Part shown: piece after piece, positions 13,941 to 55,401 of the stretch | Position numbering within the stretch: the stretch's first letter is position 1 | How the letters are laid out: every line of letters starts with the position of its first letter | Source of the DNA: Hormiphora californensis | Taxonomy: Eukaryota > Animalia > Ctenophora | NCBI GenBank assembly: GCA_020137815.1 | Contig: CM035360.1 | Span: 558,001-622,000, forward strand | Direction of reading: 5' to 3' | DNA length: 64,000 bases | Made by a program: the position numbers and the translations under genes | Notes under the pieces: generated by a model | The model's input: only the letters and a program-made list of their open reading frames with translations | The model's database searches: none | Told to the model about the DNA's origin: nothing

Positions 13941-16900
13941 TTACGATTTTCGTCGGCCGACAATATGAACCATACTTCTCGATTTGTACTCCACTGAGTC
14001 CAAACTGAGTCCATCAGGAGGTTGTCTAACCAGCCCACTCTCACTTCTAATAGGATCCTGGTCAACAATGGCCCCAGATCCCAACTTGAACACATCACTA
14101 TCATGCGCCACAGCGGTGGGAATGTTTGATAGAGTCCTGGTTGTCATGGTAACTGGAGGCCCCGCAATGGACAGAGTTGAGAGGTCCAGAGATGCGGGGT
14201 GGTAGGTTGAGTGGTAGTTATATAGGTTGCCATGGTGATGTGATCCCTTACACCAACCGTGGAAGATAACTTTACTGGTTGACTCTGTTCTGGAGGACGC
14301 CACAACGGACAAATGGGTGGGAACAAGGAGGTACTTGGAAGATTCTCCAAACCCTGCAGATGAGCCCTTTCCACTTCCACTTCCACTACCACTACCACTA
14401 CCACTACCACTACCACTTCCACTTCCACCTCCACCTTCACTACCACCACCACTACCTCCGCCACTTCCACTTCCCTTTGGGCATTTTACGTTGCCTTGGA
14501 GACCGAGTCCTTGGTACCCTAACTTCTTGTTACCCGACCCTTTATACAACCTGCACTGTAGCACCCTCCAGTCCACATACCCGGACACCTTGGCCTTTAT
14601 GGTCCTGCCCCGGTTAGGAATAAGCAGCATTACCTGATCAAACTTCCTGCCTTCAGGAGGGGACTCTGCCCTCTGTTTCTCTACCCTCAGTGAGCTGAAT
14701 TTGATATACTGCATGGAGAGTTGCTGAACACCATGTACATCTCTGTGCAGCATTACGTAACCAATGTTAGGGGTGGAACGCTGTTCTCCTATAATGGTCC
14801 TCATAGTGAAACTGTTGAAAACATCAACATTCATTTTCAGTTTCCGTTGCTCTGGTGACTTGACTTCAGGGGGCACCGTGCTGAGCAGGGTGGCTGTTGA
14901 TTTTAGGACGGGTGAGAGAGAGAAGGATGAGAGGGATGGAGATGGAGGAGAACCAGCACGAGATCCTGATATCTCTGGAACAAGTTTAGGTGAAGGTTTT
15001 GCTCGTTGGAAGTAGTGGGTTCCGTGGATGAACCGTGTGGTAACCCACCCCACCATCTGAACCGGCTGACTACCTGTCCCATGGTAGAGTTTGAAGGTGG
15101 GTGACTTGTTGGTGTGTTCTGTAACAACTCTGTATCTACCACCACTACCTCCCCTTCCCTTGACCACGCTCCGAGTTGATAGGACCACCTTAACCAGCTG
15201 CTTTACAACTGCCTTCTCTTCTTGGAGACGGGGTGTAAATGCAACTAGGTTGGTTTGACTATAAGGTTTTATAGGAACGATCTTGATCCTTGTATTTGGA
15301 ACAGGGAATTTGGTTGCCCGGGAGTGAATCTTGGTAACCATGGTAACACGAGGACGTCTGAAGTGTGCCGCTCGGAACACAACACCAGTTAACCTATTGA
15401 TACTAGCCATTCCTGTTGTCTTGGCAGGATTTTTCCTGGAAGTTATCCAAGTTTTCCTGCCAGGTATCTTGACAGCCTTGCCCCAGGAATGTTTCATGGA
15501 TCTAATTGTCACCTGCTTCAACTCCACCACCCCACCTTGGAACTCTGAATGCGTTGCTATGGTGTACAAATACTTCCTGACCTTGGTGATCTTAAGAAGT
15601 GTGGTTGCCACGGTTACTAACCGTTTCGCAGGGGCGCCCTTTTTGTGTGAGACAGATACCATGGCAACCCTGATACCCTTGGCAAACTGGAGTCTTCCTT
15701 GGACCTCCCAGGATCGATGTGTGATCCACTTAGTATCAGGTCTGTATGTGATGTGGGGCCATTTCCAGAACCGTCTCTTTGGTGATGTTTCTGAACTGAG
15801 AGTCAGCATTATAGGGACTACTTGTTTCACCTTCATTATCGTCTTTCTGTTCCATCTAGTCCATGCCCTGGCTGATTTGTATTTGTGGGTCACTAAAGAG
15901 TCCGTTCCTGAGGATTGTTTGAAAGAGAACAAGTTGAGGTCTCTCTTGAATCCCAAAAGCCTAGCTAGCCTCTTTCTATCCAGTTTGAACACCCTCCCAG
16001 CCTGTAGAACCCTACTTTCCCCAGCCAGTTGAACTGTAAGATGGTGCGATGTGTGGGTGTACCGGACCCACATTATAGGACCATCATTAATTTCAACTCC
16101 TCCTGTTGTCATAGGGAACTTCCTCTCTACTGGATCAATCAAACACTCCTCAATCCACCCCTCAGTGCGTGTTACTGAGAAGATGTAACGGTCAAGATGC
16201 CGTGTCGCACTCTCACGATCTGTTACCACGACAACCCAGGGGGTGTGTTTAGTTTTCCGAGGTATAACCGCCACTTTGACTGGTTTACCGGCTGTAACCA
16301 GCAGGATAGCAACACGGTGCCGAGATCGGGCCTTGGCGGTAAAGGTTGTCTGGGTTACTGTGACAGAAAAGGAGAGGGTTGTCATGTGGCCCATCTCATG
16401 CTCCTCTCTGGTTCTGATACTCATCTGAACAGCCTGCTTGTGGGAGTAGGTGCCCACCCCGGTGTAAGATTCATCCAGGGTGACAGAAAATGCCAGACGG
16501 ATTCCGGTGTCGGATGCTAAGCGACCCCACTGGTACAGGAAATCTGTTGATTGGACGCCCTTGAAGGTTTTACTAATGATGGTGTAACGCAATCTGGAGA
16601 GTTTGGAATGAAGGGCGTTAGCAACGGTTGCTAGGAATCGAGAATGTTGTGTTGTCATGACATTCACTCTTGTATCCGCACTGTACTCAATAGCCTTTTT
16701 AGGTTCTGTTTCGTAGAACGATTGTAACCGTTTTCCCAACACCTCCTCCTCTTCATCTAACGCGGTGAAATATAGTTTGTGTGTTGCCGTTGAGAACACT
16801 AGAACTTTAATCACTCTCTTCTCACTCCCTGTCTCTCTGACTACCCTTCGACTCTCTATCGTCCCTGTTTTTAGTGCAGTAACGGTGGTATGAGAGTGCA

Positions 16901-19900
16901 TGGTAGTTGTATAACCAAGACGACCAGCTCCCTCCCACCATCCCACACTAAACCTCTGGTGTGTGGTGGAGCCTACTTTCACTCTATAGAAGATCTCCAG
17001 CATCTTTCCCGCCTCTAACTCCGACAGTAACTCCAGGGTGAGAGTTTTGGCTTTTCCAACTTTGTGAGTGTTCACAGCCCGGATATAAGTGATATCGTTG
17101 GTGATACCGAATGTTAGTCTCACGGCCTCGTTACCGCGTGACAGATCACGCGTGAGAACACCAAACCGCTCGTAATTTTGTACATCGGTCGCAAAGTTAC
17201 GCGTTAGTCCCCGATACTCCTGGGAATGTTTCGTTGCTATGGAAACAGTGTTGCTAAGACGGACAGGCCAGAATTGATTCTTATTGTTCGTCATGTAATG
17301 AGATTGCTCCACGTGATGAGGTGCCGTTATCTCGAATCTTGTTCTCATGACAACCATCTGTTTATCAACGGTCAAATGATCACTCGCCACGTAGTTAGCG
17401 GTAACCAAGGCAACGAATTCTTGTACTATGGTAACCAGTTTGTCTGTCCCTTTGTCCCGTGTCACCCTGTATCTTCTCTGAGATGCTACCTTGAGAGAGG
17501 TGATCTGCATTTGGGATGTCAGCCCTGATCTCCAGGATACGAGACTACCAGACACGACACGATATCGATTATACGAACTCTCAGTCGATAGAGTCACACT
17601 ATGGCTATGGAAGATGGTTAGTAGGATGGTGATAGTTTCGAATGAAGTTTGAAATCTTTTCTCAACGTACTGAATCTTCTTGTCTCCTAACGTCTCAACA
17701 CTGTCTTTAGCGACACGAGAGCCCAGGTACCGTTGAGCGGACCATCTCTTACCACCCTCAAATGAAACAACTTCAAATCTCAGTCCCAGGTGTTGGCGAG
17801 TCTTGAAACCTGCTCCAAACCTTTGTTTTTGGAACACCATCTCAACTCGTTGTGTGATTTGCCTCGCTCTCCTATCTCCATGGAGAATAGCTGCGTTGCT
17901 ATGGTGACTGTAGGTATAGGTCAGATGCTTCTTAGCACCTATACGGTGAGTAACTGTTATGTCCATGGTTGTTCCAGCAGTAAATTCACTCTTCCCTACC
18001 ACATACCCAACTAGTACCACTGCACCCTCTACCTCCACCAGAGTTTGAAGCAGCTCGGAATCTTCGTGACGAACTACCAACAACTTCCCAGTTTTCCCAA
18101 CTTTCCTTCTGGCCAGGGTGAACAGAGTTCCGGTTGCTAGGAAACCAATAGTAGCACCTGTACCAGTTGTAACCCTTCCATACCCGTAATGTACAGCGAG
18201 GATCCTCTGAGATACACCAATAATTGTCATCTCGTGTTTACCTTCAACCTCATACTCGCTATCAGCAGCATGATGCCACACCTTCTGTAATGTCTTCATT
18301 GCTGTATCTACATGCCCCGTCTCCATGGTTACTGCTCGGAGATGTCTGGAGATGCCCCATCGTTTCCTGGACAACTGGTCTATCACTAGGAACCGGTGAG
18401 TCATGAAATAACGATATTGGAAGGAGACTGTAGTTTTACCCCGTATAGCTTGTGTGCTAAGGTATAATCCCTGTCTTTTGTAAGTAGTGAAAGTTGTAGT
18501 TTTATGGTTAACGGTCATGTAATGAGACTTCTGTTTAGTGTGTTTATCCTCCGTCTTGTGTCCTGTCCTCAAGATTATCTCTCTGTACTCAATAAGAAGA
18601 GAATCCCTTGTCTGGTATTGTTCAACTAGCACAACACCATAAGCGAATGCCTGGAGGACCCTCACTCCAACCCTCTCCTCCTCTCCAGCCAAGACCTTCC
18701 TGATGATCTGGGTAGTATGGGCAGTGATCCCAAAGTCCCATACTCTCGTCCTGTACCGGGTCTGGACACCCCTCTCCCACCATCTAGCTCTACTGTAACT
18801 TGTATCGGAGGTGGTGACCCCGGTAGTAGAGTGGGAGAGGGTCTGGACATGGGCTGCTTCCAGCGAGTACTGGTATGTTACCATCCAGAACAACACTGCA
18901 GTGTGAAGTTCAGATGTTGTCAGACCATTTTCTGTTATAGTTTGAACCTTTTCCAACCGATACGCAACGTGTCGATCCCGTGCTCCACCAGCCACTGCAA
19001 GGAATATATCAATCTTGATCTGCCTGAACTTGAAAGCGATATTGAGCCTCTGAAGGATCACCTTGGTAGTTGTATCAAGTTTGGAGTGACGTGTGAGATC
19101 TCGGAAATGATCCCTTACTATAACCCTGTGGGATGAATCAAACTTGGTCTTGGTGTGGCGTCTCTCCGTTGCTATGGCAATCACAACTTGACTCCATGAT
19201 ATCTGTTCTAACTCCACACCTCTCACTCCTTCCCAGTGTTTCACAAAGGTAGATTTCCTAAAATCTCGGACCACTCCCAGGAAATCATCCTTCCTGTACA
19301 CCACATGAATCTTGTTTTGATGCTTCACAGTTCGATGAAAAGACAGCATTAACCTCTCCACTACAAGCTGGTACATCTCACCCTGCCTCCGGGTTATATG
19401 CCGTGAGAGACGTTCAAACTCACGGACAGATCGGGTCACATATCTGACATGTGATCTCTTGAGAGTATGACCAGGTTCAGTTGTAAATGTGTATTGAAGG
19501 ATAATCTCTTTGTACCCAGTAAACCGCTCAATGACACCACTCTCATCCTTCCTAACTGCCACCCCTGTTCTGTGCCTATCATACACTATGATACGGGTCC
19601 ACCTGAACGTGTCAACTGTAAAGGGTGTCACATGGAATTGACGTGGTTGGGTTCGTGTGTATTTGTACCGTTGAAGGTCGACAATAACTTTGCGGACCGT
19701 ATCGTCCCGGTAACGAGATTTCACCACTTTTGACTCTGTGATGGGGACCTGGCGGGTGAAGAATCGAAGGGTGTGCCGAGGCTCAATGGTGTATCTGGAT
19801 ACCTTGACTTGGGGCTTCTCGAGTTTATTGCTGATTACTACAGTCTCTGTGTTCCTCTGTCTATCACTTTTAACCGTCATTTTACCGGTCACATACTGAA

Positions 19901-22900
19901 GATGGAGGGTCTCCCTACTGAATGTAACTATCCTGCGAACCACTCTGAAGTGCTGATGAAGTTTGATCCCCCTGTAGGGGTCCTCTCTACTTTTCTCCCT
20001 AGTGGTAGTAGACAGGAGGTCCTCTTCAGGGGATATGTTGGTGCGAGGAGGAGGGGTTGAGATAGAGGCCGTTAGATGCAGATACGGGGGAATGTCGGTG
20101 TGATGTGTGGTAATTGGGTGGAAGTATCTCTTCCCCACCATGTGTATAACGGAACTCTGCACGTGTGATGTCACGAAGAATGCCAACATCACAGGTATAA
20201 CCGGCTCCATCTCCCCAGACATTCTCCAAGTTAGCGTCATGGCTGGGGTCCGGCTGCTATCCAACCTTGTTCTCCCCAAGACAACCTCTCTCACATCACC
20301 AACCAGTTTGATCTTGTTGGGTCGGAGGATGCTGGATCCAGGTACTGCTGGTAAGATATATCTCCTGCTGTAGAATGAGAGGGAGAGGATGTGGGGTGGT
20401 GTCCGTCTGTACCCCGTCCTGATATTAGGTATGGTGAGTTGTCTTGTTATTACCAACACGTCCCTCTGGTAGGGGTTATGGACTAAGTGGTGGACTCGGA
20501 AATTAAAGGTTGGATCCCAAGAGATATGTCCCTGGGTGACCACTAGGAGCCGCTGTGTGTAAAGGGTGAATTTGATGGGTGAGGCTATGAACCGACCAAC
20601 TAGAACTAAGTGGCGACGTTTAGGAGTAGCACCTAGCACTGAAAGCCGGTAAGTTAGAGTCCCTGGCCGGTAAGTTCCTGGTCGGTAATATTGAGATCCT
20701 GGTCGGTATTTTTGAGATCCTGGCCGGTAGAACATTGAACCAGGCTGATAATTTTGTGTTCCATGCTGGTAAGTTCCTGGTCGGTAATTCTGTGAACCTG
20801 GCCGGTAATTCTGTGAACCTGGCCGGTAAGTCTGTGAACCTGGCCGGTAAGTCTGTGAACCAGGCCGGAAAGTTTGTGAACCTGGCCGGTAAGTCTGTGA
20901 ACCTGGCCGGTAAGTCTGTGAACCTGGCCGGTAAGTCTGTGAACCTGGCCGGAAAGTCTGTGAACCAGGTCGGAAAGTCTGAGATCCAGGCTGGAAAGTC
21001 TGTGAACCAGGTTTTGCACGGTCTGGTGGTGACCCAACTGACTCGCTTCTCAGATCGGGTCCCCAAAATGGCTGAACAACTATCTCACTATACGCCACGT
21101 AGGAGAGAGTGTGGGAGTCAATAGTAGTTGAATAACTAGTTGGTATTGGGGGGAGTTGATCCATAATAATCCTAACCCATATCCTCTCCCAATATATAGT
21201 CATGGTGACGGGGTGGGAATCATAGTACCCAATCAGAGAGGGATACTGGGGCAGGATAGTCCATCTCATTCTCCAGGTGAACCTTTTCAACCTAATGACG
21301 TCACGTGGCCAATACGTCACACCCGTCCTATAGTTCATGTTATAGTACGTCATGAAGATGACAGGGTCGAAGATGTAGAAGGGGTAGTTCCAGATGGTAA
21401 AGGTGTTTAGTGTTGGCATGGACCAGGAGTATGGACCCCAGAACCCGTGTATACAAAACCATCCAGACCGCTTGAAGATATTCAACTCTCCACTATCACT
21501 ACTAGGTAGACCAGGGCACTGGAATGTTGGGGATCGGAGTGTCCGGGGATGGAACTTGGTGGTCCGACATGGGCCATAAGACCCCCGAACCGAAGATCTC
21601 ATTTTGGTTTTGTACTGCCTGTGAAGGAAGTGAAGCGTGGAAGACAGCTCCATTCTTGGTGTGAATCTTTGTCGCTTAGTAACCGATAGTAACCGCCTAA
21701 CAACGGCTGTTGCTGCGGCATCCAGCCTGGCCACCTTTTCCTCATCTTCTGTTGCTTGGGCAGCCTGTCTGATCCTGGTTATCAGGGACCTACTATGGAA
21801 CTTCCTAAATGTATGCCTCCTCTCGATCCCAGGATCTCGTGTCCGAATCATGGGAAAGGTGACCAGTCTGACTATCCCAATAGTAACCTCCCACCTGACC
21901 ATCTTCTGGGCACCTGTTTTGAGGCTGCCAACTTGGTGGAGATGGGTCAGCTCCCCATCTACCACGTACCACGGTCCAGGGATGGAGAATGAGGTTAGAT
22001 GGACACGTGGCAATAAGGGCATGTTCCGTGTCCACCATGTCCTAACCCCATACCTCCGACCCAGTTCCACCTCAGGGTTCCAGGTTGGTAGAGTGTGGAG
22101 GGTGAGGTCTAACAATACGACCATACTGTGAGAGTTTTCTGAGACTGAGGCAAGGATGGGGATCCATTGGTAGACAATGTGTACCACTGCAAAACTCCAT
22201 TGACCCGTGTATCGCTGCTTTAGACTCATTGCTTTCACACTGTACACAGACAGTTCTTTGTCCATATCGTTGGATAGCTCAAACCGGCGAGTTGTCTCTC
22301 CACCAGCGATAACTTTGCAGTTTTTAGAATCCTGGACCCCAAAGGGAATGCCATTTATGTTGCTCTGACCACAATTTTTATACAAATGGGAAATGGCCAT
22401 TGCTTGCATTTTAATCTTAGCACTTATTTTCCGTCTTGCGTGAAAGTCCGCCGATATGACTTGTGACGTTAGTGCGGTGAGTTTACGGAATTTGTGCTCC
22501 TTCATAAATCTCATCATCACCTTGGTAACAACAGGGCGCTTCCTGTGAGCTGCCAGTACTGTCGCTGCCAGGCCCCGCTGTTCAGTGTAGAATGCAGCTG
22601 ATGAGAAGGTCACGTGATGGTACATCTTCACATCAGAGTGCATTATAAACACTATTCTGTGAAGATTGAGGGTGATAGCAATGGTCTGGGAGACTGGGTA
22701 ATCAGGTGCTGCGGTGATCTGGGTGATCCTCACCATCCTAATCCTCCTAGTTCTCTCTGAACTGACTCCATACCACATATTATCCCTTCTACTATCCCAC
22801 TGGGTGAGCTGGTGACGCTCCCAGAACGAAGATTGGGTGTTCCTGATGCGGTATTTGTGTTTGATATCCATGAAGACTGTTGCCATGGTAACGTATTGAC

Positions 22901-25900
22901 GGACATTGACCGTTACTAGCCGGGGAAATGTCTCCAGCATGGTCGTGTAGCCATGGTAGGTGAAGGAAAGGACTTCATCCTGAGTGGATGGGTAGGGTGT
23001 GGCAAGATAGCTCCTCTTACAGCGAGACAGCCCTGTTTTTGTAGAAAGGTATTTTGATGAAGAAGTAGGGAACTTGTGTCTTGGGTCTCTGAGATAGGAT
23101 GGTGGGTAGCCGTACACGTGAGACACCACACAGATAGTGTGAACTTGTTCTTTCTCCACAACATTTGATGAATCTTTTTGATCACTACTTCCAGACGTGT
23201 CGTCTTGATCAATTACTTGGTAACGATTTTTTTCATTTTCATCATGATCATCTTCTTCCTTAGACGTCATCATCATCATCACCCAGGTCGTTATCACCAC
23301 TGTTGAGATTCTTCATTTTGGTTAACATCATGGCTCTCATCTACTCCAACTTTACCATCTTTCTTAGTTAGTCTCATCTCTGGTATCCTCAGTGTCGGAG
23401 CTGGAACCAGTCTCACCATCCTTAGTGCGAGTTGAGGATTCAGTCTGATATCCATCCTTAGAGCTGGAACTAGCACTCTCATTGTCTCCAGAAGAACTAG
23501 AGGCAATCTCACTATCCCCTGTACCCCCTAGTAAGGAACTCTCACTATCGTCACTATCCCCTAAGGAACCTCTACTCTCACTATTTCCCGAAGAACGTCT
23601 ACTCTTACTATCCCCTACTTCCACGAGCACAATCCCCACAGTGGTAGCCACCACTTCAGCCCCTCTAAACCTCCTCTTCCTCTCCCATCCTGTACCCCAG
23701 ACCAGTTCCACCCCAGGTAACTCACCCCTCTCCACCACACTACCCGTCACAATCACATGACTCTCCTGCGACATCACAGTAGTTTGTGTGACCTCTGCCA
23801 CCACTCTAGGTGAACCTAAAGCCACAGTTCTGAGACTCACTCTCCATAACTGGGTACTGACCACCCAGCGGCGGTGGAAGGAGAGTCTGTTAGCTGTCCT
23901 GGGTACCAGGTGGATGTTATGGGAGGTGAGACCTAGTTTGGACATTTTAACCCGGACATCGTTTAGTAGAACCATTGCGGTGATTCTGACTCGGGGTCTC
24001 CTGATCTCAGAATCAGGCCACAACATCTTATCAGGGAAGTGTATTTTAGTAAACAGGAATGATTCTAAAGTGTGTTCCATCATCACCATGTTCCCTGGAC
24101 TGTTCTGACCCAACTTCACCCGTTCTACCACTCCTAATGTGTGGAGATGGGTAGAGTGGATCGATACAGCTAACTGCTGATGTCTCAACAGGATCCGTTT
24201 GGAGTTCCCCGACCACACAAGATGGACAGATTCCTCTGTTAGGTAGCTGTGTCGAAGTAGCGGCCTACAACCCCATTTATCCGCATCTGTCATTGGTTTA
24301 TTACTAGAGCTCTGGTCAGGCTCCCTCCCTATAACCGATGTGGCGCTATCCCGTGGATCTCCCAGCCCCACATTCCCGGGCTTCATTGGATCGTAATCCC
24401 TGACACACACAATCCCGTGAGCCCAGATCTGGACCCCGACCTTCCTCTCCATTATCTTCATCTCCCTCTGCCACTGGGTCACCGCCTGCCGCTCTGATAC
24501 CACAAATACAATCCTGTGTACTGGGTAAATAGCGGGTACTTCACCATAAACTAGATCTTGGATGGTTGGAAAAGAGCGGTGTTCGACAGTGACCGCTGTG
24601 GGAAGGACTCGGGCAAGAGGGTGCCAGCTGTAGGAAAGAAGGGTTGCTAGTGAGAGGATATTCTCCCACACTCCAATAGATGTGTAGAGATAAGGTTGAG
24701 TTGTTGGGAGGAGGGTGGTGTGTGAAATACCAGATTTTGGGTGGGATATTACTCTCGGATGCTGGACATGTTTTAACCCACTTGGTTGGATGATGGTTCT
24801 AGGTCCATCCCAAAGGTCCATCATGGTCATCTCCCTCTCAACAATGGACCTCATCTGGACACCCAGCCCCACAAAGCTATCCCAGTTCGAAGTGGTTGGA
24901 ATTACTTGTTCCCAGGGGGTGGCGAGGGTGAAAAGAGAGGATAATTGTCGGGTCTCCACCACAAATGTAATAAAGTTAATATGGTGGTGTATGGAGTTGT
25001 GGATACCAGATATCATGATAGGTCGACCCACCTGGGCCAGCCCAATAGACCTGACCTTATCACCCTCACCTTGAATCAGCATTGGTATTGCCATGGTAAC
25101 ACGGGGAATTGTGTCTGTTGCTATGGGATACAGTGCATCTGGGCCCCAGTGGAATCTTTGGGAGAAGGTGTGATGTAGCGGTGGACTAGTTACACCTACC
25201 CAACTACTCCTGGTTTCCAGGGTGGTTGCTAGCACCAGATACCCCACTGTCCTTGTTCTCCTGTTTACCACGCTCTTGTGACCACTAACAGTTAACAGGT
25301 GGTGGTCAGTGTATCTGTGGGTTGAAGTTATGGGCCGGGTCTGACGTTCCAGCCCGTATAATGTGATTAGAGCTGTCCCTGGGAACTCCCATCTCCAAGT
25401 TTTGGGTGGACTGACTCTTACATAGATGTCTTTAGAAACCTCATTCTCGGAGTATCCAGCCCTCTGAATGGGAGGGAAGAACTCTCCAGTAACATCAACC
25501 ACTCTAACTCTCTTCTTATGTTCCTCCCCTGCAAACACAAACTTAGTATCACCATGGTGATTATACGCCAGGGATGTGTCACCATGGTGACTGTATCTGT
25601 GGAGGCGGTACTCGTATCCTGCAGTATCCATGACAACCGCGTGATCCGAGAATTGGAGAACGGTGTCACCAGAGCGGGGTGATAAGGGGTGTTTATTAAA
25701 CGAGCCTGGGTGTCGAGACCATGGCTGTTGTTGGTAACCATGGTGATAAGGTCCTTGGTAACCATGATGATGATATCCTTGGTTACCATGGTAACCAGGT
25801 GGTGATCTTAATGTCCAGTTTCTAGGATCTCGATAGAAAGTCGTCCTTCTGCTGTGGCTGAAATGTGTAGTTGTAGAGGAATGGTGTTGGCCATATCTCC

Positions 25901-26771
25901 AGTCGGTACTACCAGGATGATGGTTACCATGGTTACTGAATTGACGGTTACCATGGTTACTAAATTGATGGTTACCATGGGTACCATGAAAGCCAGAAAA
26001 TGGTGTCTCACGATCAGAAGACCCTTCTCCTCCAAACACTAACTCTGTATCTGATGCTGCTCTGCTACCACCCTGTAATGATGATGCTCTGCTACCACCC
26101 TGTAATGGTGATGATGATGATGATGCTCTACTGCTACTATCTCTAAATTCTGACTGAGTTACTGATGCTGCATCTTGACCTCCTGTCTGTCTGAGCAACC
26201 TGGCATCTTCCCTAAAATCTACACTTTTAGTCCTTGTAGTTCCTCTAACTGCAGCTGATCTTGATATGTGAGGTGTATCGGAGGATAATTCCGGTTCAGA
26301 ATCCGGGGTCTCCCGTAGCAACTTGGAACTCTCCCCAAACACTAATTCTGTTTCTCCAGATCCAGGCTGGCCTCCATTGTTGTCGTGGTTTTCAAACACA
26401 AGCTCCGTCTCTTTGGCATGATCCTGAAAAAGAAGGGTTTTAGCTTGCATTGATACCATGGGCAATGCCATTGGGCATTGCCGGCTGTCATGGTGGAAAA
26501 CACTGCTATTTAATTGCTATTTAATTACCTGTTCTCTGTTGTGATGGCGGCTGTGAAAGTTATACTGGGCATTCACAACACTCGCTACCACTAGCAACCT
26601 GAGAGGGAGGGTTGTTATGTTCAAACCCTTCTTTACAGAAACACAGTATAGCTAGGCAAGGGGAGGGAGGGATTATAACAACAGAGGTTGAGAGGAATAA
26701 ACAAGAAAACAGATGGGATAAGAGGTGGCGTCACATGACATTTCAACTTACACTAAAAACCAATTTTTCAT
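13941..26771 (-). CDS. Giant secreted basic beta-rich protein, paralog A (~4,190 aa)
   Basis: Exons 26771-26752 (MKNWFLV), 26598-26529 (LLVVASVVNAQ...REQ) and 26423-13941. The last exon covers ORFs 23364-26471 and 13941-23300, bridged by frameshifts at ~23280-23370 in an acidic linker. Contains a signal peptide, His/Gly/Tyr tract, CIHGFWGPYSW core, RPGSQTY repeats and a GS linker. Confidence 0.8.
20645..21014 (-). repeat. Coding 21-bp minisatellite encoding (R/Q)PGSQ(T/N/K/Y)(Y/F) heptads
   Basis: Tandem gtctgtgaacctggccggtaa units, about 17 heptads including degenerate ends. Confidence 0.9.
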
Positions 26772-27080
26772 TCATCCGACCGTCAGTATCTTGAAACTGA
26801 AATCACATCGCCTAAAACATATAGAGATGGGGGAATGAAACAGAAATATGGGGGAGTAGGGGGAGGGGAGGTGGTTCGAAGATTAGGGGTGGAATCAGTA
26901 AAGGGAAATAAAACAAGCAGATGCGAAACAAAATAAAAATTTAGTATAAATTCCAACATAACTTATCAAATTCAATTGTGAATTGCATCCACTAATTAAT
27001 TCACTGTGAATTATTATCGCCGAACATATTTTACACAAATAATAACACACTGAAACAACTAAAAACTAATTAGATCCTCA

Positions 27081-34784: not shown

Positions 34785-35414
34785 TCATTCGTTGTCTTGC
34801 CGCCGCTTGTTGAGTAACAAGCCGCTGCGTTACCAACATGTAACCATGGGAACAATTCGTGATTTACATAACTAGAGATAGATAGAGAGGGTGGGAATTA
34901 GGGGGGATTCATCTGGGGGTAGCGGGTTCAGGATTTGGGGCTTCCTGGAAAAAGGGCGTAACCTAGTTATTATACCGCGGAAATGAAAACACACACATTG
35001 CTGTAGCTAAAATAAAAGTGAAATAATAACTCTCACATAACTTACAGATTACTATTTACAATAATAAGGATTGTTTTTTAAACGACCTGGGTACTAAATC
35101 CAGCTCGCGGGAATGACCAGAAGACCAAGAAAACATGAGTTTTAGTTGCTTTTAGGAAATCTATCAAATACTCTGGCCATCCCAAAAATTCTAAATGTAA
35201 AGTTTGTCAACTGTAACTTGCTTCACACCGATTTAAGAAAATAGACAAAGTGCGTCTGGTCAACAGTAACAGTGCTAAGTGCTAACAATATGTTTACGTC
35301 ATAATTGAAATACCAAACCTTGATCCCATCCAATATAATATAACTCAGTTCATTTCTAATTCATGATCCCAGCGGATATTACCGAAAATAAGCTGCCAGC
35401 AGCCCTGAATAGTA

Positions 35415-38400: not shown

Positions 38401-41400
38401 CCCCTGGTTTGAATGAAAGTGATCAGGTGTTCCCCCTCTATCTCTTGAAAGGTCTCAAACTGAACCGTTACCAGCTGTTTGTATATCACCGCTGTAGCAA
38501 CCCCTGTTAGGAGAATGTCAGACCTCAGGAATCTGGTGATGTGACTCTGGATACCTGTGGAGGTGGGGGTAGCAATGAAGTGGGCCTGGTTGTAGGTGGA
38601 TAAAATGGAGATCTTGGCGTGGATTCTCACCATAGCAACCGCCCCATCTTGTTCTTTCACCACCTCCGTCTTCCGTAGAATTCCCTGTCGGGTCATAGAG
38701 AGGGCAAGGGTGGAGGTCTGTTTGAAGCTGTGTCGAGGTTCCAACTTGAAAGTAGTTTGGATTGTATACCAAATCACTTTGGTCAGTTCACCCTTACCCC
38801 CGCGTCTATAGGATATCACGCGGCTAGCAAACTTGGTGTGGGTCTTGGTAACCAGGATAGTTGTATCGTGTGACTCTACTGTGGTAACCATGGCAACACG
38901 TCTAACAGATAACTCTGAGATAACATGATGTTGCTTAGCAACCGTACCACTATCCCTTGTTGGTAGCTGTTTCACCAGATCGCCTCCCCTGAGTATAGAA
39001 TACTGTGTCTCCATCTGATCACGTGACACACTAAACATGATCACGTGACATCTCTCCACCTCTACCCCACTCTTCAAAACCACCATCCTCCTCTGTTCTG
39101 GTTCAGAGGTGCTGACTAGAGTCTTCTTTCTTGCTGTCCCAGATTTAGCGACCCTAACATGGTGGTCCACGTGTTTTGAGCTGTGTTGTGTTACCATAGC
39201 TTGGAATAACACCACTTTTGCTACTCTTAGTTTGACCTGTTTTCGAGCTTTTACTGTTGCCATGGTACCCTTCTCTAGATACATGTCCTCTGATGATGTG
39301 TGGTCAACTAACATGATACCTCTCCTGGTACCTGTATAGGACAATACATGGCGTTCCACCCACCGGTACTCAGAGGACAGGGTGATCTGACTAGCACTGG
39401 TAAGTTGGTGAGTGGTAGCTTGGAACTGTTGAACTAGATAGAAACCCTTAGTGAGCCCAAATGACCTCATCAGCATCACCTTGTGTGATGTCACAAACTG
39501 GTATCTTTGTGCCTCACTGGACCGTGATGTGATAGATAGTACAGGTCCAACATGTCTCTCAAATGATACGTAGTCATATTGAGCAAGGTACCGTTGATGT
39601 AGTGCCATCCTTCCCTTGTGTCTCTCTAGTGATCTCCAACTAAACCAAACATTGAACAGGATACTATGCCCCTCTGAGATCATCTGGGCAGTGTTCAGTA
39701 TCACGTGTGTTACCTGGGTGATCTCACTCTTGCTCCTGCATAAAACTATCTGTGTAGCTGTGTGTTGGCTGAATGCCTCCCTTTTGGAAACTAGTAGGCC
39801 TGTGTAGTGGGGGATTGTTACCAAGCGGACAACACGGTCAGCAGATGTTGCCACTATCATTTCATTTCGATGAGAGAGGGAGTGGGTCCGGGGAGTTTTC
39901 ACCCTGTAAACAATGCTAGTTGCCATGGTATCACTGTACCCTCCCCTTCCTCCTTCTGTCAGTAGCACGTGTGCTGCCTCCGTGGTGACACCGTGACGGA
40001 ATGTGGGTAGTACCCAGAGTTTAGTGGTTGCCATGGTAACCTGGTTACCTAACAACACCACCACTCCCCAGCGGTAGTAGCTTATCAAGAAGATAAGGTG
40101 GGTCGAACGAGTGGTGATGGATAACCCTGGGGAGAAAGAAAAAGAAGGATGGACTGTTGGAGGCTGGTATAGACTTTGTATTGTCTGCTTCAGTTTTCTA
40201 ATATTGGAACCTCCTGAAATGAACCCAACATGACTCATGGAACTCCCCACCCCTCCCCAGAGAATAATAGAGTGGGTTGAGATGACACTATCTGTTCTTG
40301 TTATGGCGTGTCCAGGGTTAAACTGCGCTCTAACATTACTATAAGGTGAACAAATACAAAACTGGACAGGTGACCCTGGTCTTAGGAGACGGTACGCAGG
40401 GTGTGATGCAGACGGGTTTAGTTTGCTGAAGGAGTAGGAGAATGATTCACTAAGGAAGGTTTGCTGATAGATGTACCGGTTATAGAAGTTGTAGAAAGTG
40501 AAGGAAGTTGATTGGGGAGAAGGTGGTTAGATTCCAAATCACAAACTCGTTCTGCCGGGCCATGGTCCAGTAATACGGCCCTGGAACACCGTGTATACAG
40601 AGTTTAGTGTGTGACCCCTTTCCTTCAGAACTCCCACTTTGCTCCTCTCCTTCTTTTGAGGATGAGGAGGAGGAAGTTGTCCCTTTCTCTTCAGAACTTT
40701 GAGATGTTGTCCCTTTCTCTCCAGAACTTTGCGATGTTGTCCCTTTCTCTCCAGAACCTGCCTTATTTTGTGAGGTGGAAGAGGATGGGCAGAAGTAAGT
40801 GGTGGTATGAACCTTGCCTCTCCAGCAGTATGGACATATTTTACACGGTTTAGTAGCAGTAGTAACCTGACCCTGATCATGTTTAGTAGTAGTCCTCTGA
40901 TCTGATCTGGTGATCCTGCTGCTCCACACATTGGGGGAGTGATCATCTACCTGATCACAAAATGGTAGTTCACCCTCTCCACCTGGTGTTTTTAATTCTT
41001 CCCCAGGTGATGTTGTTGATGATGAATCATCCAGATGGATAGTTCTCTGTCGTGCCACACTTTTCCTGACACACCTCCCCTTCAGATAACCCGTACCCCA
41101 TCTCCCTACAATCCCCTCTCAGTCCTTCCTCTCCACACATTCCCTTCTCTCATCCCTAGCTGTTGTCATGGTACCATATTGTGGGTTAGAAAGTGACCCG
41201 TAGGGGGAGTGAACCTCAATGGCCGTTAGAGCTCTACCAATATCTTTAACTTTGAACTCATGAGTGAGGATGCGCTGTGGTCGGTACTATCCCGTGTTTT
41301 GATTGGCTCGCCTACGAACAGGGTGTGAGACTCTGAAAAACATGACAAACTCATCAGGTTGGATCTGACGGGCAGCACCATTAAATCTAAAAAGTGTTCC

Positions 41401-44400
41401 AGCTGGCAGTGAAGGTTCTTGTAGCATGATGTTTGAAGTTGTGACCAGCCTCTGATTCATGCCATGGGTTTAGTTAGGACAGGTGGGGTGAGAGCTCTGA
41501 TGACGTCACTCTGGGTATCAAGGTGCTAGTTTAACCTGACATGAACTTGGCCCATTTCCGGAGGGGTCTATCTAAATTGAGAGTTTCAGCCCGAGGCACC
41601 TCCGGGTTCTGAGACACAGCAGCGATTAGAGATAGGGAGACCTTCCGTATCATGAGGAAGATGTAGAGTGATTTTCTGCCGTAGTGGTACCGCTGTTTCG
41701 CCTGGTGAGGTAGGAATGTAGATCTAACTGTGTACAGAGTCCTGAATTGTTTGATACTGGGTTCACTTGATATTATGGAGCCAGGTGTTAGTACTGGGTA
41801 TTTTAGGGGGTGAACTGCAGGTATCTTGGTGGGAGAGTCAGCATGGTACTGCATTAGAACTAGGGCTTTGTGTCGTCTCTGGGTGGATATAACATGGTCC
41901 ACCGTTGTGGAGTGGTAGGTGAATATGGATGTTGTGGTGGAGGTCAGGGTGAGGGAACACCGCGGCGTGTTTGGTGAAGGAGCAGATCCCTTAGCAACAC
42001 TGGAGTCCTTAGCAACAGTAGAGTCCTTAGCAACAGATTCTCTATCCTCGCTACTTGCACCACTCGTATCCCCAGTGACCATGGTAACAGATCCAACACT
42101 ACACCACCCCATCAACTCCCTTCCTCTCACCACACCACTCTGAACCTCTCTAACCCACCCTGCAAGACTCATTATCCCCACATCCCGGATACCAGACCAC
42201 GATATCCTTTCCGGGGAGATATCCCTGTCAGTCACCCGGCTCAAGGGTACGGGGCTGGTTCTTGGGTGGTGTTGGATAATCACGGTGGCCCTCATCAGAC
42301 GGGACCTGGTCTGGACAGAGTGGGAATATTTCTCTAGGTGTCGTAGGGTGTACCATATGTAGCGGAGGGTGACAAGAGTTGATAGAGGGTGCTGGGTGGG
42401 TGTCAGGATGATCTTTCTAGGTGGGGTACGGAATACAGATCTGTGAAGAACGGCACCTCTATCCTCCATTATTTGGGGATACCAATCATTCTGCCTGATC
42501 ACTGTAGTCACCCCAATGTACTTCATCCCTACTTCACCCACTATTATAGACACCGTCCTGTCTATCTTCAGCACCACGACTATCACCTGTCCAGTTGACC
42601 TCTCCACCGCGGTACCCCACACCTGGACCACACGACCATACTTGGGCAGAGACCTTTTCTGGGAATCTTTGGTGTCCATGGCAACCCACCTCTCCAACTG
42701 AAACACAGTTCTATCCACTAATGCAGGCTGGTTGATGTGGACCACTTGTTTGGATACATGAACCCTTGGTCTCCAGGTTTCACCTCTCCTCCCGGTTGTC
42801 ATGACAACATGACGAGTGTGGGTGAACATTGTATCGATTAGATAGGCTGGGGTAGCTACAGAGTGAGTGACAGGGTGGGATGGTGGGGTCTGGGGGTGGA
42901 CTAATATCACAGCAGCCAACACCCGATGTTCCGCCTGTATACTCGTTTTAAAGTGAACTATCTCTATCACTAGGTGCTGGTACCACCTACTAGGAGAGAT
43001 CCTGCGGGGTACCCCATGTGGCATGCCCGCCATTACACCCTGTTTAGTAGAGGGGACTACCAAACCCATCCTGTTGGTCTGGTGACAAGATATTCGGGAG
43101 AGTCCCAACAAACCAGCCACACCAGGGACTAGCTGCTTAGCTTGGAGAGTTTTGAAAAAGTCCTGGAGGTGTTTTTCGTGTTTGTTTTCAGGTTTTGAAG
43201 TCGGTGGAGCGGGGTCCTCTCTCTCACAATCGCCCATTATAATCTCTCCATGTTCACCCGATATGTGGTAATTGATAACCGGACTTTCTGTCACACTCCC
43301 AAAGGGCACGGCAATGATCGGAGTCCAGTACTCGGCATTGGTTATCTTTATGAAGGAGCGAGTTCTTCTGATGAACATGCCGTAAATCTGGCAGTGGTTG
43401 CGATGTGTTTGTAGTATGATAACACGGTGTCTCCAGTAGGCAAAGAAGGAGTTGGTTGTAGTAGGAACAACTAGTCGAGAGGAGATGGGATAGGTGGTGA
43501 CAAGGGTTGAACAAGTCAACTGTTGTTTGGGTCCTAGACATGTTTTAGAGATCCCAGTTGGGCCCATGGTAGTACCATGTTTTGTCTCTCCGTGATCATC
43601 ACATCCTCCAACCCTAAACACCTCCCCTCCAACCTCCCTCACCTCCTTCTGTGAACAGTGCTCCTGACTTATCACATACTTGTGAGCTCCACTGTTCTGT
43701 ATTCCTATCCCAATAGCATTGGATGGAAGTGATTTGAGGACGGTTGTCCTGCCTGCAGGATGGAACCTATGTTCAGTGGTTACCATGGCAATGGTGTCAG
43801 GGTTTGGCAAGAATTCAGGTGCAACCGTCAACTTCAGGTACAGATACTGCCTGTGAATGTGGATACGTGTATCTCTGTGTTTGATAACACGCCGCTTGTT
43901 CACGTGGCGAGTTACTGTTGCCATGCCAGGAATCTCATCCTTCCACCTAGCAACCGTTGCTACGCGGTAAACAATCATTTGGACCCCTGTCCTGATGAAC
44001 TCTCCGTTTAGCTCGTATGATACAAGGTGGGTTTGGATCTGGGCCAACTCGTGGTTACCATGGGTTACCATAGCAACCTGGGGTGTAACCAAGTGACTCA
44101 ACTTAGTGATACCCTCCATAACAACAGGATTCGCTAGGGCACCACCCCGAACTCTCCTATTCTGCACCATGGCAACGAAATGAGTGGTAACAAGGCGAGG
44201 TGGGGTGAATGAATCTGATTGAGGTGCCACCAGGTGATCATTCTCCATGACTTCACTCGTGTATATGACGTCACAAGTTAAACTGTGATCCAGGAATTGG
44301 GTGGAATGTCGTGTCTCGGTGAAATATCTAACAGGAACGGGTTTCATTCTAACCCCACACTCTCTAACCACCATCCCGTACCTTTGTCTACCCTTCAGCC

Positions 44401-47400
44401 TTATCTCCCTGCCCCAGTGTGAGGTCTGGATGTGCTGCACGTGCCCTGCTAGTAGAACCACCACATGTTCCCGCTCAATAAGGGACGTTGTGGCTGGATT
44501 AGGGAGGTATTTTGGGATGTAAAGTCCAAATCGAGGCGGGGAGAACATGTCCCAGATAGACACTAGATAACTGGTTCGGGGGATGCCTCTGATTCTATTC
44601 CTGATGCCTGACAGATAGGACATGGGAGGTGTGAGACCGATAGTGAGACCCACATTCCCTGATAACAAGGACACAAACAGCTGCCCTGAAGATCTTAACT
44701 TCCAATCCCATCTCTGCCAAGATTCCTTGAAATATGTTTCTTGTTGGACACTCTGCTCAATGGAAAACAACACTACTCCAACCTCCCTCTCCCATGTTAG
44801 GTCCATCTCAGGCAGGTCCGGACGTGCCACTGTCTCCATGACCCCAGAAGTCCTCACATAACCCACCTGACTGGCTGCACCAATCCTCTCATAGGATATT
44901 ACTGCCACTTTCTTTGAGGTCCTGGTGTAAAACTTGAAGGGAACGAGAAGAACCATCATGCTGTTAACATGGGCGTGTTGATGGACAAACTTTAAAAAGA
45001 ATGTTCGAGGTTTGTGCTCCTCCCAACCCCTCTCAACCAGCTTCCTGACAGCCACAACTGGGGGATGGGTGACTCTGATTGGGGTAGCTCGGGGTGGGTT
45101 GTGAATCACCACACCCGTCCAATATATCCTATCCTGACATCCTATCTTTAGATACGCATACTCCCTGATATTCTTGAACCATGCCGAGTTATGAGTCTTC
45201 CTCCGAACATTCCTCCCCTTGTATAGTTTGGTAAAGGTAGTGGGAGGCTCTGAGTACATGTCAACAGGGTATAGGAAGGGGTAAGGTGGAGGAGAGTGGG
45301 ATCCCTTGAGAAGGAGATAGGAGTACCGGATCTGTCGAACCTCCCAGTCAAACACATTGAAGGATGAGGAGACGAGGCGTTCCTGGTCTGAACTGTAGTG
45401 GTTCACACTGGAACTGTGGTGAGTCTCCTGGAGGAGGGGAATTAGTTGGGGTAAAGATAATTATTATAGTGGGCAGGTGAGTAGAACTTCGCTCCTAATA
45501 AAAGGCTGCAATAAAAGGCTGCAGAAAAAGGCTGCAATAAAAGGCTGCAATAAAAGGCTGCAATAAAAGGCTGCAATAAAAGGCTGCAATAAAAGGCTGC
45601 AATAAAAGGCTGCAATAAAAGGCTGCAAGGGATCACGTATCTAACCAGACTAAAGCGGGGGATAGACCGAATCGTCCTCCCCTAATAGTGTTTCGTATCA
45701 CGTATCGGCTGTAGAGAGACCGAATCACCTTCCCCTAATTATAGTGACTCGTGTTACGTATCCAACTAGACCATAGGCGATAGAGAGACCGCGATAGAGA
45801 GCGAGTACGAGTGAGAACTGAGAGAGTGAAAAATCAGAATCATGGTACGGTATCACGTACCATGGTATCCTCTAATGAAAAGCGGTTACCAATTGACAAT
45901 GAGACCTCATCGGTCCCGATACGTGATTCTCTACCGCTATGTATTCTCCATTAGTCTTTCCGTATCGATCCACGATTCAGTAGAGGTAGTCAGTAACTAC
46001 TGAGAGTGTTGGTCTAATGAGGTAGGGTAGATCTTGTTTTGTTTGTCGAACAAGGCAAGGTAGATCTATTGATTGAGCGTGTAGCACAATCACAGGTGAA
46101 CCACCCAACCACTTGGTTCACCTATCATAGTACTATGTGTGATTCCGCTCTACTGAATTGTGTACATTGGCGAATAACGGTAGAAAATCAGTAATCACGT
46201 ATTGGCACCGATTAAGTCAAATTATAGGTAACCGTCTTTCATTTAATTAATTAGAGGATATCATGAAACGTGATACAATACTTGATTAGTCGTCCATGAT
46301 TCGGATCTCTCACTCTCACCTCTCTAACTCTCTATCTCCGTCTATCTACCGCCTATGGTTTAGTTGAATACATGGCACGAATCACTATAATTAGGGGCGG
46401 GTGATTCGGTCTCTCTACCGCTTATGGTATAGACCGATACGTGAAACGAAACACTGTTAGGGGAGGACGATTCGGTCTCTCCTGCTTCGGTCTCTCCTGC
46501 TTTAGTCCAGTTGGATACGTGATCCATTGCAGCCTTTTATTGCAGCCTTTTATTGCAGCCTTTTAATGCAGCCTTTTATTGCAGCCTTTTAATGCAGCCT
46601 TTTATTGCAGCCTTTTATTGCAGCCTTTTATTAGGAGCGAAGTTCTACTCACCTGCCAAAGCATGCGGAAGATGAGGGCGAGATGAGTGGCGAGATGGGG
46701 GCTGAGGATATTTGTTGAGTAAGGGGTCAACAAGGGGAGATGGGGGTTGTGGATATGAGGAGTTTAGGGGTGAAACTACTCGAAAAAAAAAGAAGTGGGG
46801 AGTAAAAAAAAACAAACCAAATCAGTATCAAAATAAAACTCACAGTTTTCTGAGTACCCACTAATACCGTTCCTGAAGTGTGAAAAAGTTTAGTTAGCTC
46901 CTTCAAACAACCACATGCTCAATAAATATCTGTCTGGCGGCGCCGACAATAGATCCGAGTGCACTGAGAATCAAAACGGGGTCTGCCGGACAGCTTTAGC
47001 TTCGGGGGGAAACATTCGTGACTGAACCTCAGGTACAGATCTCGGCTAATTTACCCCGGAGACCTATTTACCCCTGAAATCTTAGCCCTCAGGGATTCAG
47101 GGATAGCCGTGACCTGAACCTGAGGTTCAGTCATGACTCTTCCCTCCCCCAATGGATTAAACCACCCAAACAAGTCAGATTAGGGCATATTAATAAAAAG
47201 GGACACCTGACCTAACAATGTAAATGATTCTATATCTCTTACGTGTTTGACAGCGTAGTCCGGACCACCCTGGGTAGCACAGGCACACAAAGTTCCTCCT
47301 GGTATACCGGAGTTCCCCATGACGACAGATCCTCCCTGACCCACCTGTGTTACCATGGTAACGGGTAGTAACAGGATGCAGCAGAGACAACAAACACCAC

Positions 47401-48633
47401 AGGAAACTGAAGGGGATCAGGGAATTAAGGGCAAACATAGGAAACTGGAAAGTAAAACTAAAAAATTCTGGTCTGAAACAGAAAGGACGAAGAGGAAAAA
47501 CCATTTGCTGCAGACGGCATCTAGACATGGCTGAGCCGTAGTCTAGACTTCATCTAGACGTTATAGTACGTCTGGATGGAATTTTTAGAGACGTACTACA
47601 GACGTAGAAACAGCCCACGGATTGTCTGGCGGCCCGACACGTCACCATACAGCCCATGGAAGCTTAACGGATGGATTGAGACGTTGAATCAACACTCAAC
47701 ACTTCAACAGTGACTGCAGTTACAGAGGTACCTTTTTCTTTATTTTGAACGTTCCGTCTCAGCGAATTTCCACTTAACTTCTAGAATCGATTGGTGCGGA
47801 TCAGACGTATTGAGACACCCACTCTCAGACCAGTGAAACCACGTCTGTTATAGTACGCTCGCCGTAATTCAAGCTGCCTGACGTACGTATCTATTGAACT
47901 TTTATTAACGTCAGTAAGTCAGTTTGATTCAGACGCATTACAGACGGAAAATGCTCAACGGAGTCGTACGTTTGGTGACGCAAAACAGCAACTTGAGGTG
48001 ACTGCGCCACCAAGTCGTACGCGTACGTCAGACGTGTTGAATAGCGTACTACAGACGTGAACAACAAACTGTTTCAGTAACTTCTGATCAAGACGGTTTG
48101 AAACCGTCACAAAACGTTTCGAGAAAGGGAAATTCGCTGAGACGTATCGTTCAACATAAAATACGTCTCTAAAAATTCCGTCCGGACGCACTAGGTCTGG
48201 ATGAAGTCTAGACTACGAGTCAACCACGTCTAGATGCCGTCTGAAGCAGATTCTTTTTTGCCGAAACTGGGACAATCACAAAACGGGACTAGTAACGTAA
48301 GGAGATTACACTGGGACAAAACGGGACTAGATTACTGACTACCAAACAACTGCCTACCAGGAACCGACCGAATTAAGTAAACAGCCAATCAGAACTCGTT
48401 ATTTAGGTCACGTGACTGTTTATCGGCCAATCAGGGACCAGTATTTCCTGATTCGGTCGGTTCTTGCTGCCTACATATCGGAGGCCAATTATGATATCAA
48501 TAAGCTATGTATCGGGTACCATCGGTAACCACTTCCCCCGAGGGAGTGGTTACCATGGTTTCATGGAGTGGTTACCATGGTTACATGGAGTGGTTACCAT
48601 GGTTACAACTTACCACAAGTTAAACTTGGGCAT
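35415..48633 (-). CDS. Giant secreted basic beta-rich protein with an N-terminal EGF-like motif, paralog C (~3,400 aa)
   Basis: Exons 48633-48614 (MPKFNLC), 47406-47243 (signal end plus CRHG...CLCYPGWSGLRC), 46872-46844 and 45427-35415, with phases 2,1,0 all consistent. The last exon covers ORFs 41531-45406, 40480-41058 and 35415-40250, with frameshifts at ~41060-41530 and ~40505. It is collinear with paralog B from the Cys core to the C-terminus. Confidence 0.78.
45472..46657. mobile_element. Foldback/MITE element with subterminal 13-bp minisatellites, in intron 3 of paralog C
   Basis: Inverted termini GGCAGGTGAGTAGAACTTCGCTCCTAATAAAAGGCTG. (aataaaaggctgc)n arrays at ~45497-45628 and, inverted, at ~46527-46632. 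Imperfect inverted arms internally. No clear TSD. Confidence 0.8.
47005..47150. mobile_element. Small MITE-like inverted repeat
   Basis: gggggg...gtgactgaacctcagg versus cctgaggttcagtcatga...ccccc. Confidence 0.45.
47505..48250. mobile_element. MITE/foldback element in intron 1 of paralog C
   Basis: cagacggcatctagac..gg.tga..cgtagtctagacttcatc.agac...ggaatttttagagacgta at the left is inverted at the right (acgtctctaaaaattcc...gatgaagtctagactacg...gtctagatgccgtctg). Rich in agacgt subrepeats. Confidence 0.7.
48358..48466 (+). mobile_element. hAT-type MITE (~109 bp) with 8-bp TSD
   Basis: TIRs CAGGAACCGACCGAA and TTCGGTCGGTTCTTG. TSD CTGCCTAC at 48350-48357 and 48467-48474. Confidence 0.85.

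Positions 48634-49147: not shown

Positions 49148-55401
<6,254 letters not shown>

Follow-up and report, generated by a model that had tools for sequence, protein, structure and literature searches.

A tandem cluster of three giant, probably secreted, cationic repeat proteins as candidate extracellular structural material in the ctenophore Hormiphora californensis

Which proteins build the extracellular fibres and the glue of ctenophores is an open question, because the available part of one preprint describes the colloblast adhesive as a proteinaceous material of unknown identity (bioRxiv 10.1101/2020.06.27.175059) and, according to the available part of another, fibrillar collagens are missing from ctenophores (bioRxiv 10.64898/2026.02.02.702917). 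The question arises here for a 64,000-nt stretch of Hormiphora californensis DNA (GenBank assembly GCA_020137815.1, contig CM035360.1, positions 558,001 to 622,000; hereafter the window, numbered from its first nucleotide), in which three adjacent minus-strand genes, termed A, B and C, encode giant proteins. We read A, B and C as precursors from which a cationic, beta-sheet material (fibre, coat or glue) would self-assemble outside the cell, and rate this as slightly better than an even call. The reading is carried by the structure of the genes, a repeat common to all three, their charge and the avoidance of N-glycosylation sequons. New in this analysis are the shared repeat of about 205 residues, a Cys motif enclosing a Lys-Arg pair and the sequon avoidance, and the locus supplies three candidates for fibre or glue, recognisable by a diagnostic motif and offering a predicted cleavage site and a repeat unit that can be expressed separately.

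Gene structure and integrity

Eight long stop-to-stop frames of 212–3,123 codons each were found on the minus strand between 13941 and 45460, where the genes follow each other in the order C (ATG 48633, stop 35415), B (ATG 34784, stop 27081) and A (ATG 26771, stop 13941), with 630 bp from the stop of C to the ATG of B and 309 bp from B to A. In each gene a first exon of 20 nt (phase 2) precedes a short exon 2, with GT..AG borders, and the last exons measure 10.0 kb (C), 6.1 kb (B) and 12.5 kb (A). With the broken places read through, the exon coordinates give proteins of ~4,190 (A), ~2,416 (B) and ~3,407 aa (C). Frames, splice borders and coordinates thereby confirmed the three head-to-tail minus-strand genes of the initial annotation, with their sizes, their spacing and their mostly single exons of 6–12 kb. 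Exon models are predictions from sequence, and at the broken places the models used for composition lack ~100 codons in B and ~140 in C. The features of the three genes are:

48614..48633, minus strand: gene C exon 1 (ATG, 20 coding nt, phase 2), predicted from sequence
47243..47406, minus strand: gene C exon 2, remainder of the predicted signal peptide and EGF-like motif; matches residues 31-67 of the Mnemiopsis relative P0002
46844..46872, minus strand: gene C exon 3, 29 nt, predicted
35415..45427, minus strand: gene C large exon, 10.0 kb; breaks at ~41108-41534 (stops, frame change) and one frameshift near 40500
40495..40851, minus strand: gene C Cys motif; the loop is enlarged into a Ser/Glu/Gly linker without Lys-Arg
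36336..39419, minus strand: gene C, five ~205-aa repeat units with spacings of 206, 204, 206 and 207
35845..35910, minus strand: gene C Gly/Ser linker preceding the small C-terminal domain
34765..34784, minus strand: gene B exon 1, overlapping ATGs at 34788 and 34784
34553..34610, minus strand: gene B exon 2, completes the predicted signal peptide; not in the Pleurobrachia bachei gene model P0001
33332..34401, minus strand: gene B exon 3, His/Tyr/Gly/Pro-rich tract; 86% identical to P0001
27081..33184, minus strand: gene B large exon, 6.1 kb; six single-base indels at 29742-30021
32356..32613, minus strand: gene B Cys motif, Lys-Arg within the loop
28224..31305, minus strand: gene B repeat region, four units assigned, a fifth expected by spacing across the indel cluster
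27660..27777, minus strand: gene B Gly/Lys/Ser linker preceding the C-terminal domain
26752..26771, minus strand: gene A exon 1, overlapping ATGs at 26775 and 26771
26529..26598, minus strand: gene A exon 2, completes the predicted signal peptide
13941..26423, minus strand: gene A large exon, 12.5 kb; frame changes at ~23270-23380, within an acidic Ser/Asp/Glu linker
25497..25994, minus strand: gene A His/Tyr/Gly tract
21327..21572, minus strand: gene A Cys motif, Lys-Arg within the loop
20666..21012, minus strand: gene A 21-bp tandem array, a heptapeptide repeat
15531..19832, minus strand: gene A, seven ~205-aa repeat units with spacings of 202-207
14369..14780, minus strand: gene A post-repeat module and Gly/Ser linker, common to B and C

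The available parts of two papers describe common trans-splicing and loss of tentacle genes in Beroe (PMC11184263, PMC8527503); trans-splicing could be the cause of the tight gene spacing.

The frames of all three genes are interrupted in the assembly, at four broken places, two of them in C. Compared with the P. bachei orthologue P0001, which is coding throughout the corresponding stretch, the B break consists of six single-base indels in 280 bp (five insertions, one deletion), and the broken stretch holds ~11 substitutions in ~113 residues, not above the rest of the gene (86–89% identity). Since the indels are clustered and come with no extra substitutions, and since the orthologue is intact, the B break is likely a local assembly or consensus error; for the A and C breaks the same may be supposed by extension from B. 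A 304-bp GT..AG stretch of B was tried as an intron made from coding sequence and rejected, P0001 being coding there. Decaying paralogues, i.e., young pseudogenes in H. californensis, would account for a break in every gene and for the two broken places in C. Set against them are the clustered single-base indels of B, with substitutions at the usual level, and frames that stay open for 3–9 kb where the other sense frames carry 45–183 stops, and we consider pseudogenes very unlikely. Proteomics that relies on annotation could overlook A, B and C, given their broken frames in the assembly and their high Arg and Lys content.

Between B and C, protein identity is 32–43% over ~1,500 aa, and nucleotide identity is 48–61% at codon positions 1 and 2 and 33–37% at position 3 (segments at 59/60/37% and 48/56/35%), with 54–72% of the fourfold sites differing. 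Because positions 1 and 2 are much better kept than position 3, A, B and C are, as judged from codon positions, real genes under long-term purifying selection. Gene A is tied to B and C by the Cys motif and the C-terminal module; comparison of the N-terminal beta regions did not connect A with C (z 0.8–1.7). Amid the saturated third positions, three B–C tracts are 91–95% identical in DNA (28867-29068/36982-37183, 32146-32304/40242-40400, and 31131-31236/39245-39350), a pattern that indicates recent gene conversion between old paralogues.

Shared repeat, Cys motif and ctenophore relatives

A degenerate repeat of 202–207 residues, of near-constant length, is common to A, B and C. Relative to local shuffles, which served as controls, self-similar windows at offsets of 200–219 were enriched in A (108 vs 3), in C (105 vs 6), in two pieces of B (47 vs 7 and 41 vs 1) and in the N-terminal region of C (30 vs 2), and an N-terminal piece of A had no self-similarity at these offsets. 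The units align nearly gap-free, and a half-period of ~103 residues is marked by a turn resembling Glu-x-Glu-Pro-Gly-His. In held-out tests, a profile made from B and C only placed four of the seven A units in register (z 3.1–3.6; maximum of the reversed control 2.3), and a profile made from A only placed three of the nine B/C units, above reversed controls. An iterative hidden Markov model did not extend the repeat past its seeds. Alternating hydrophobicity was absent from the four repeat regions (z −1.8 to +0.4 at 160–180 degrees), and the hydrophobic moment at these angles did not exceed shuffles in 6/6 regions, which makes the repeat unlike lipid-binding belts or membrane barrels.

Ahead of the repeats lies a Cys motif in which 16 residues, three of them Cys, are invariant in 4/4 rows (A, B, C and Mnemiopsis), so that the shared Cys motifs of the initial annotation held up in the alignment of A, B and C. 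Three of these rows (A, B and Mnemiopsis) have a Lys-Arg pair at the same aligned place within the loop that joins Cys 2 to Cys 3, and from this arrangement we infer a disulfide-tethered convertase site. After the repeats, all three proteins share a Cys-bearing module, a Gly/Ser linker (Gly/Lys in B) and a small end domain. The single EGF-like motif noticed earlier fell below the Pfam cut-off (E 0.008–0.01), as did the teneurin-type EGF score, but has a conserved counterpart in the Mnemiopsis protein (E 1.7e-6).

A profile composed of the N-terminal half of B and C and the Cys motif of A was searched against 1.84 billion representative proteins and retrieved two relatives, both from ctenophores and both unnamed predictions: P. 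bachei sb/3460486 (P0001; EukProt EP00116 P000224; 2,399 aa), which is the orthologue of B and 86–89% identical, and Mnemiopsis leidyi KAL5249086.1 (P0002; 734 aa), which is either a short protein or a truncated model. The closeness of B to P0001 supports a cydippid-type host, a condition set by the initial annotation, and makes a pleurobrachiid near P. bachei likely. Both are true homologues; P0002 has a hydrophobic N-terminus and has in common with the family an EGF motif of the type of C, a His/Tyr tract, a segment matching residues 96-306 of C (z 15.8) and the Cys motif. On sequence similarity, the family spans two ctenophore lineages and is so far found only in ctenophores in the libraries searched. 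The earlier label "orphan" goes too far in view of these two relatives. Families matching the protein bodies were absent from Pfam, NCBIfam, PHROGs and the PDB. Word-index searches gave none of 7,994 candidates for the C repeats (proteins of 30–935 aa), none of 4,681 for A (1,717–5,466 aa) and only P0002 of 2,784 for the Cys motif (217–2,000 aa), negatives which do not show absence in Bolinopsis or Beroe, as library coverage of other ctenophores is uncertain. Scans with the Cys motif gave 0/21 stretches in metagenomes and 0/5 in viruses, and both stretches obtained from prokaryote genomes lay in stop-riddled frames and were rejected as chance. A sequencing run, X1, only guessed to be RNA, contains a 2,128-nt contig that matches 32338-32379 on the conserved motif (42 bases, five differences) and has no other match to the locus; it may come from another family member. 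Coverage of 9000-48999 by X1 consists of short pieces only and leaves the zf-A20/AN1 neighbour uncovered as well, and is uninformative on expression. A literature search of titles and abstracts, largely without subscription journals, returned no description of the A/B/C family.

Domain searches of the eight frames in Pfam yielded nothing for the protein bodies, and at E up to 1 no lipoprotein N-terminal, VWD, RHS/YD, MACPF or aerolysin match; P0001 and P0002 have no lipoprotein N-terminal or VWD domain at the same threshold, and NCBIfam and PHROGs hold no match to the protein bodies. Vitellogenin, apolipophorin and the teneurin/YD shell, which the initial annotation had named as families that would speak against it, were thus checked in Pfam and gave no match. 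The repeat profile obtained no PDB match at E up to 10; matches of the sequences to the PDB were Gly/Ser-linker and heptad-repeat noise and were discarded, and a further PDB sequence search gave a single row (E 1.5). The ESM Atlas contained no feature match, and its model of P0002 has a pLDDT (predicted local distance difference test) of 0.27. AlphaFold reached a pLDDT of 35 for one repeat unit (16 rows) and 31 for two units (8 rows), with beta strands as the only elements. With the repeat model, Foldseek found nothing at E ≤0.001 and a wide aligner nothing at Z ≥8. The repeat is therefore not matched in the libraries searched and may represent a new fold.

The top rows of the fold searches were long-hairpin pores (E 0.2; Z 7.0, root mean square deviation 6.0, 88 residues aligned). 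They bring in the possibility of a secreted membrane-attacking or container protein, i.e., a giant single-chain beta-barrel or a hollow shell of the RHS/teneurin kind, whose cargo would be the small end domain. Teneurin and RHS YD-shell proteins combine an N-terminal EGF part, a long beta region and a small C-terminal domain, and the family resembles them in the EGF-like motif, the predicted beta region and the small C-terminal domain. The order of head, long beta repeats, conserved module, linker and small variable end domain is likewise reminiscent of RHS-type architecture, a non-amphipathic sheet would suit a hydrated shell, and pores lead both fold searches. These rows, however, derive from the model with pLDDT 31, stay at E ≥0.2 and Z ≤7.0, and are a generic match for any long sheet. 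Moreover, A, B and C lack YD/RHS, NHL, MACPF, aerolysin and gasdermin matches in Pfam (for RHS/YD, MACPF and aerolysin at E up to 1), a transmembrane segment and membrane-facing alternation, and their period is 205 aa, as opposed to the short hairpin repeats of YD. A pore or shell is accordingly rated as unlikely.

Charge, secretion and the proposed material

Thr, Val, Arg, His and Ser together make up 41–42% of A, B and C, Asp and Glu 6.8–8.1%, Cys 0.3–1.0% and Tyr 3.4–4.2%; the isoelectric point (pI) is 10.2–10.3 and the net charge +161 to +239, and internal 19-residue hydropathy windows reach at most 1.84. The extreme Thr/Val/Arg/His/Ser content with few acidic residues, claimed at the outset, is thereby borne out.

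N-glycosylation sequons are strongly depleted, with 11 seen in A, B and C together against 39.9 expected (4 vs 16.7, 3 vs 11.4 and 4 vs 11.8 per gene model) and none of 2000 shuffles as low, and the relatives have none at all (11.0 expected in P0001, 3.3 in P0002); the control patterns S/T-x-N and Q-x-S/T show no such deficit. As selection against sequons is sensible only for chains that enter the endoplasmic reticulum (ER), this avoidance supports secretion independently of the signal peptides. The latter had been assigned to all three proteins: signal-like N-termini are indeed present as judged by eye, but those of A and B require a predicted exon 2 of 58–70 bp. Signal-like N-termini, EGF motif, conserved Cys motif and sequon avoidance together support the earlier claim of secretion, and A, B and C are probably secreted.

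Around the exon 1 end, A and B are identical over 18 nt, and both have two overlapping ATGs (26752-26775, 34765-34788). The second ATG with exon 2 leads to the signal peptide; from the first, a 14–20-codon upstream frame results when exon 2 is kept, and an open, signal-less protein when it is skipped. The paired ATGs could provide secreted and signal-less forms or control by an upstream frame. They also admit structural proteins that stay inside the cell, in a granule matrix or a ciliary or refractile body, and are translated from the first ATG after skipping of exon 2; the retention of both ATGs in A and B and the signal-less start of the P. bachei model speak for this. That all five sequences are depleted of sequons would be difficult to account for in chains that never enter the ER, and C and P0002 combine a signal-like N-terminus with the EGF motif; we therefore regard an intracellular role as quite improbable. 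Yolk or lipid-transport proteins of the vitellogenin/apolipophorin beta-belt type would also be giant, secreted and beta-rich, with tandem paralogues and few introns, and such proteins can diverge past recognition. Neither a lipoprotein N-terminal nor a VWD domain nor an amphipathic alternation is present, the pI exceeds 10 and N-glycan sites are avoided, all of which leaves them a very slight chance.

For a self-assembling cationic beta-sheet material, the following course is predicted, each of its functional steps being conjectural. The signal peptide would bring the chain into the secretory path, and a convertase would cut the disulfide-closed loop of the Cys motif at Lys-Arg, with head and body staying tethered. 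The repeats would form a long continuous sheet or rod with strands of ~15–30 residues and mixed polarity on both faces, and, being free of glycans, such sheets could pack. With ~5% His and high Arg and Lys, the protein could be stored densely in acidic granules and cure at seawater pH; alternatively, His, Arg and Lys would serve in binding sulfated polysaccharide or prey cuticle. The stored condensed material would be cured by pH, metal or polyanion.

The hidden ~205-residue repeat fits the structural polymer proposed in the initial annotation, and that interpretation as a whole is partly supported. Several observations weigh against the beta-sheet material. Successive repeat units are only 11–19% identical (ungapped), beta propensity comes without a significant strand-scale period, and the AlphaFold models are unusable, which leaves composition and a few strands of low confidence as the basis of the beta-sheet fold. 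The 734-aa P0002 has no match to the repeats, and C has no Lys-Arg site, its loop being a Ser/Glu/Gly linker. The signal peptides of A and B hinge on the predicted exon 2, and the P. bachei model P0001 starts at the upstream ATG, 4 nt earlier, without a signal peptide. All frames are broken, and a check against an orthologue was possible for the B break alone.

Within the whole finding, a tentacle or colloblast location is tentatively suggested, with well under even chances, and an egg coat or a mesogleal fibre would each be considerably less probable. More specifically, A, B and C might be the chief structural components of the glue of the tentacle or of the colloblast filament, i.e., convertase-activated, glycan-free polycations with a novel, seawater-curing beta-rod fold that arose when a short, Mnemiopsis-like ancestral gene gave rise to giant repeat proteins in the long-tentacled pleurobrachiids; this version is rated as rather improbable. 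In the accessible part of Babonis et al. (PMC6278862), genes specific to ctenophores and genes with signal peptides are over-represented among colloblast candidates, and low-complexity sequence is not; this fits A, B and C and does not single them out. The MD5 of P0002 is not in the candidate tables available from that paper, which is uninformative since the gene models differ.

Known cationic marine structural and adhesive proteins offer analogies. In the portion of PMC6410801 at hand, the flatworm protein Mlig-ap1 is a secreted cationic cohesion protein of 5,407 aa and Mlig-ap2 carries repeats of 255 and 221 aa; like them, A, B and C are giant, probably secreted and lineage-specific, ap1 sharing the strong positive charge and ap2 the tandem repeats. 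Mlig-ap1 differs by low-complexity K/R regions, C-lectin, vWD/C8/TIL and 17 EGF modules, and Mlig-ap2 is glycosylated (same source), whereas the degenerate repeats of A, B and C are of high complexity, and the three proteins have no more than one EGF motif each and no more than 1% Cys. Homologue searches with A, the C repeats or the B/C profile gave no match to Mlig-ap1 or Mlig-ap2. Barnacle cement proteins, as far as PMC5099703 was available, are likewise beta-sheet-rich, low-Cys marine adhesives with repeated blocks, but have 19–68 kDa and are rich in Gly/Ala/Ser/Thr or in Leu, and no sequence similarity was found. Both groups are functional counterparts by analogy, and neither is homologous. 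Ctenophore mesogleal mucins, in the available text of bioRxiv 10.64898/2026.02.02.702917, are also large secreted proteins in tandem arrays, whereas A, B and C, with 0.3–1.0% Cys, lack the VWD-C8-TIL and PTS domains of mesogleal and gel-forming mucins. That preprint reports mucins together with sulfated polysaccharides, which would be natural partners for a polycation, and the available main text names no protein of the A/B/C type. A, B and C would work like known cationic marine structural or adhesive proteins and belong to none of the families tested.

His/Tyr tracts and other features of the window

His/Tyr tracts are present in A and B (Tyr 7% and 16%, Lys 2% and 0%) and absent from C, and their raw material is a genomic motif: the tracts largely translate the palindrome GTTRCCATGGYAAC, of which the window contains 45 copies at ≤2 mismatches, against 0–1 in five resampled windows. 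Thirty-two copies lie within the eight frames and 13 outside. They are read in the Tyr-His-Gly frame in the B tract exon (8/8), the first frame of A (5/6) and the C-terminal frame of B (2/2), and as Val-Thr/Ala-Met-Val in the other frames (16/16) and in the remaining copy of A; this sorting suggests selection on the encoded residues. Sites occur in coding and non-coding DNA alike, e.g., at 1079-1110, 8444, 48549-48606 and 56391, and many unrelated contigs of run X1 also carry the motif, which resembles the X-box of RFX.

The initial annotation had derived an adhesive chemistry from these tracts. Since they largely translate a window-wide palindrome and overall Tyr is ordinary (3.4–4.2%), the catechol argument is weak, the more so with a tractless C and 0–2% Lys in the tracts. 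Adhesives of the mussel foot protein type, based on DOPA (3,4-dihydroxyphenylalanine), have high Tyr with adjacent Lys, a combination not found in A, B and C. Catechols have reportedly been described in ctenophore colloblasts, and a title to this effect stands among the references of PMC10730927; nothing in the analysis ties it to the three genes.

Directly upstream of gene C on the same strand, a His/Asn/Pro-rich frame with Tyr-His-Gly motifs (49148-49675, minus strand) has no Pfam match and no similarity to A, B or C at E 1e-3. An element whose long ends are inverted and which carries 13-bp tandem arrays fills intron 3 of gene C at 45472-46657; it resembles a foldback element or MITE (miniature inverted-repeat transposable element), and a 680-bp inverted repeat with 91% identity at 4786-6272 is probably another foldback element.

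Elsewhere in the window, a single-exon A20/AN1 zinc-finger gene lies at 9473-9976 (minus strand), its exact sequence not being found in the protein collection, and an intronless frame at 10514-11710 (minus strand) appears by eye to be a multi-pass receptor, with no seven-transmembrane match in Pfam. A multi-exon gene at 817-3131 (plus strand) has a signal-like N-terminus and tandem Cys-rich repeats, with duplicated exon–intron units of ~317 bp. A dispersed repeat of ~100 bp recurs at 13590-13688 (directly downstream of A), at 48358-48468 (intron 1 of gene C) and at 50802-50910.

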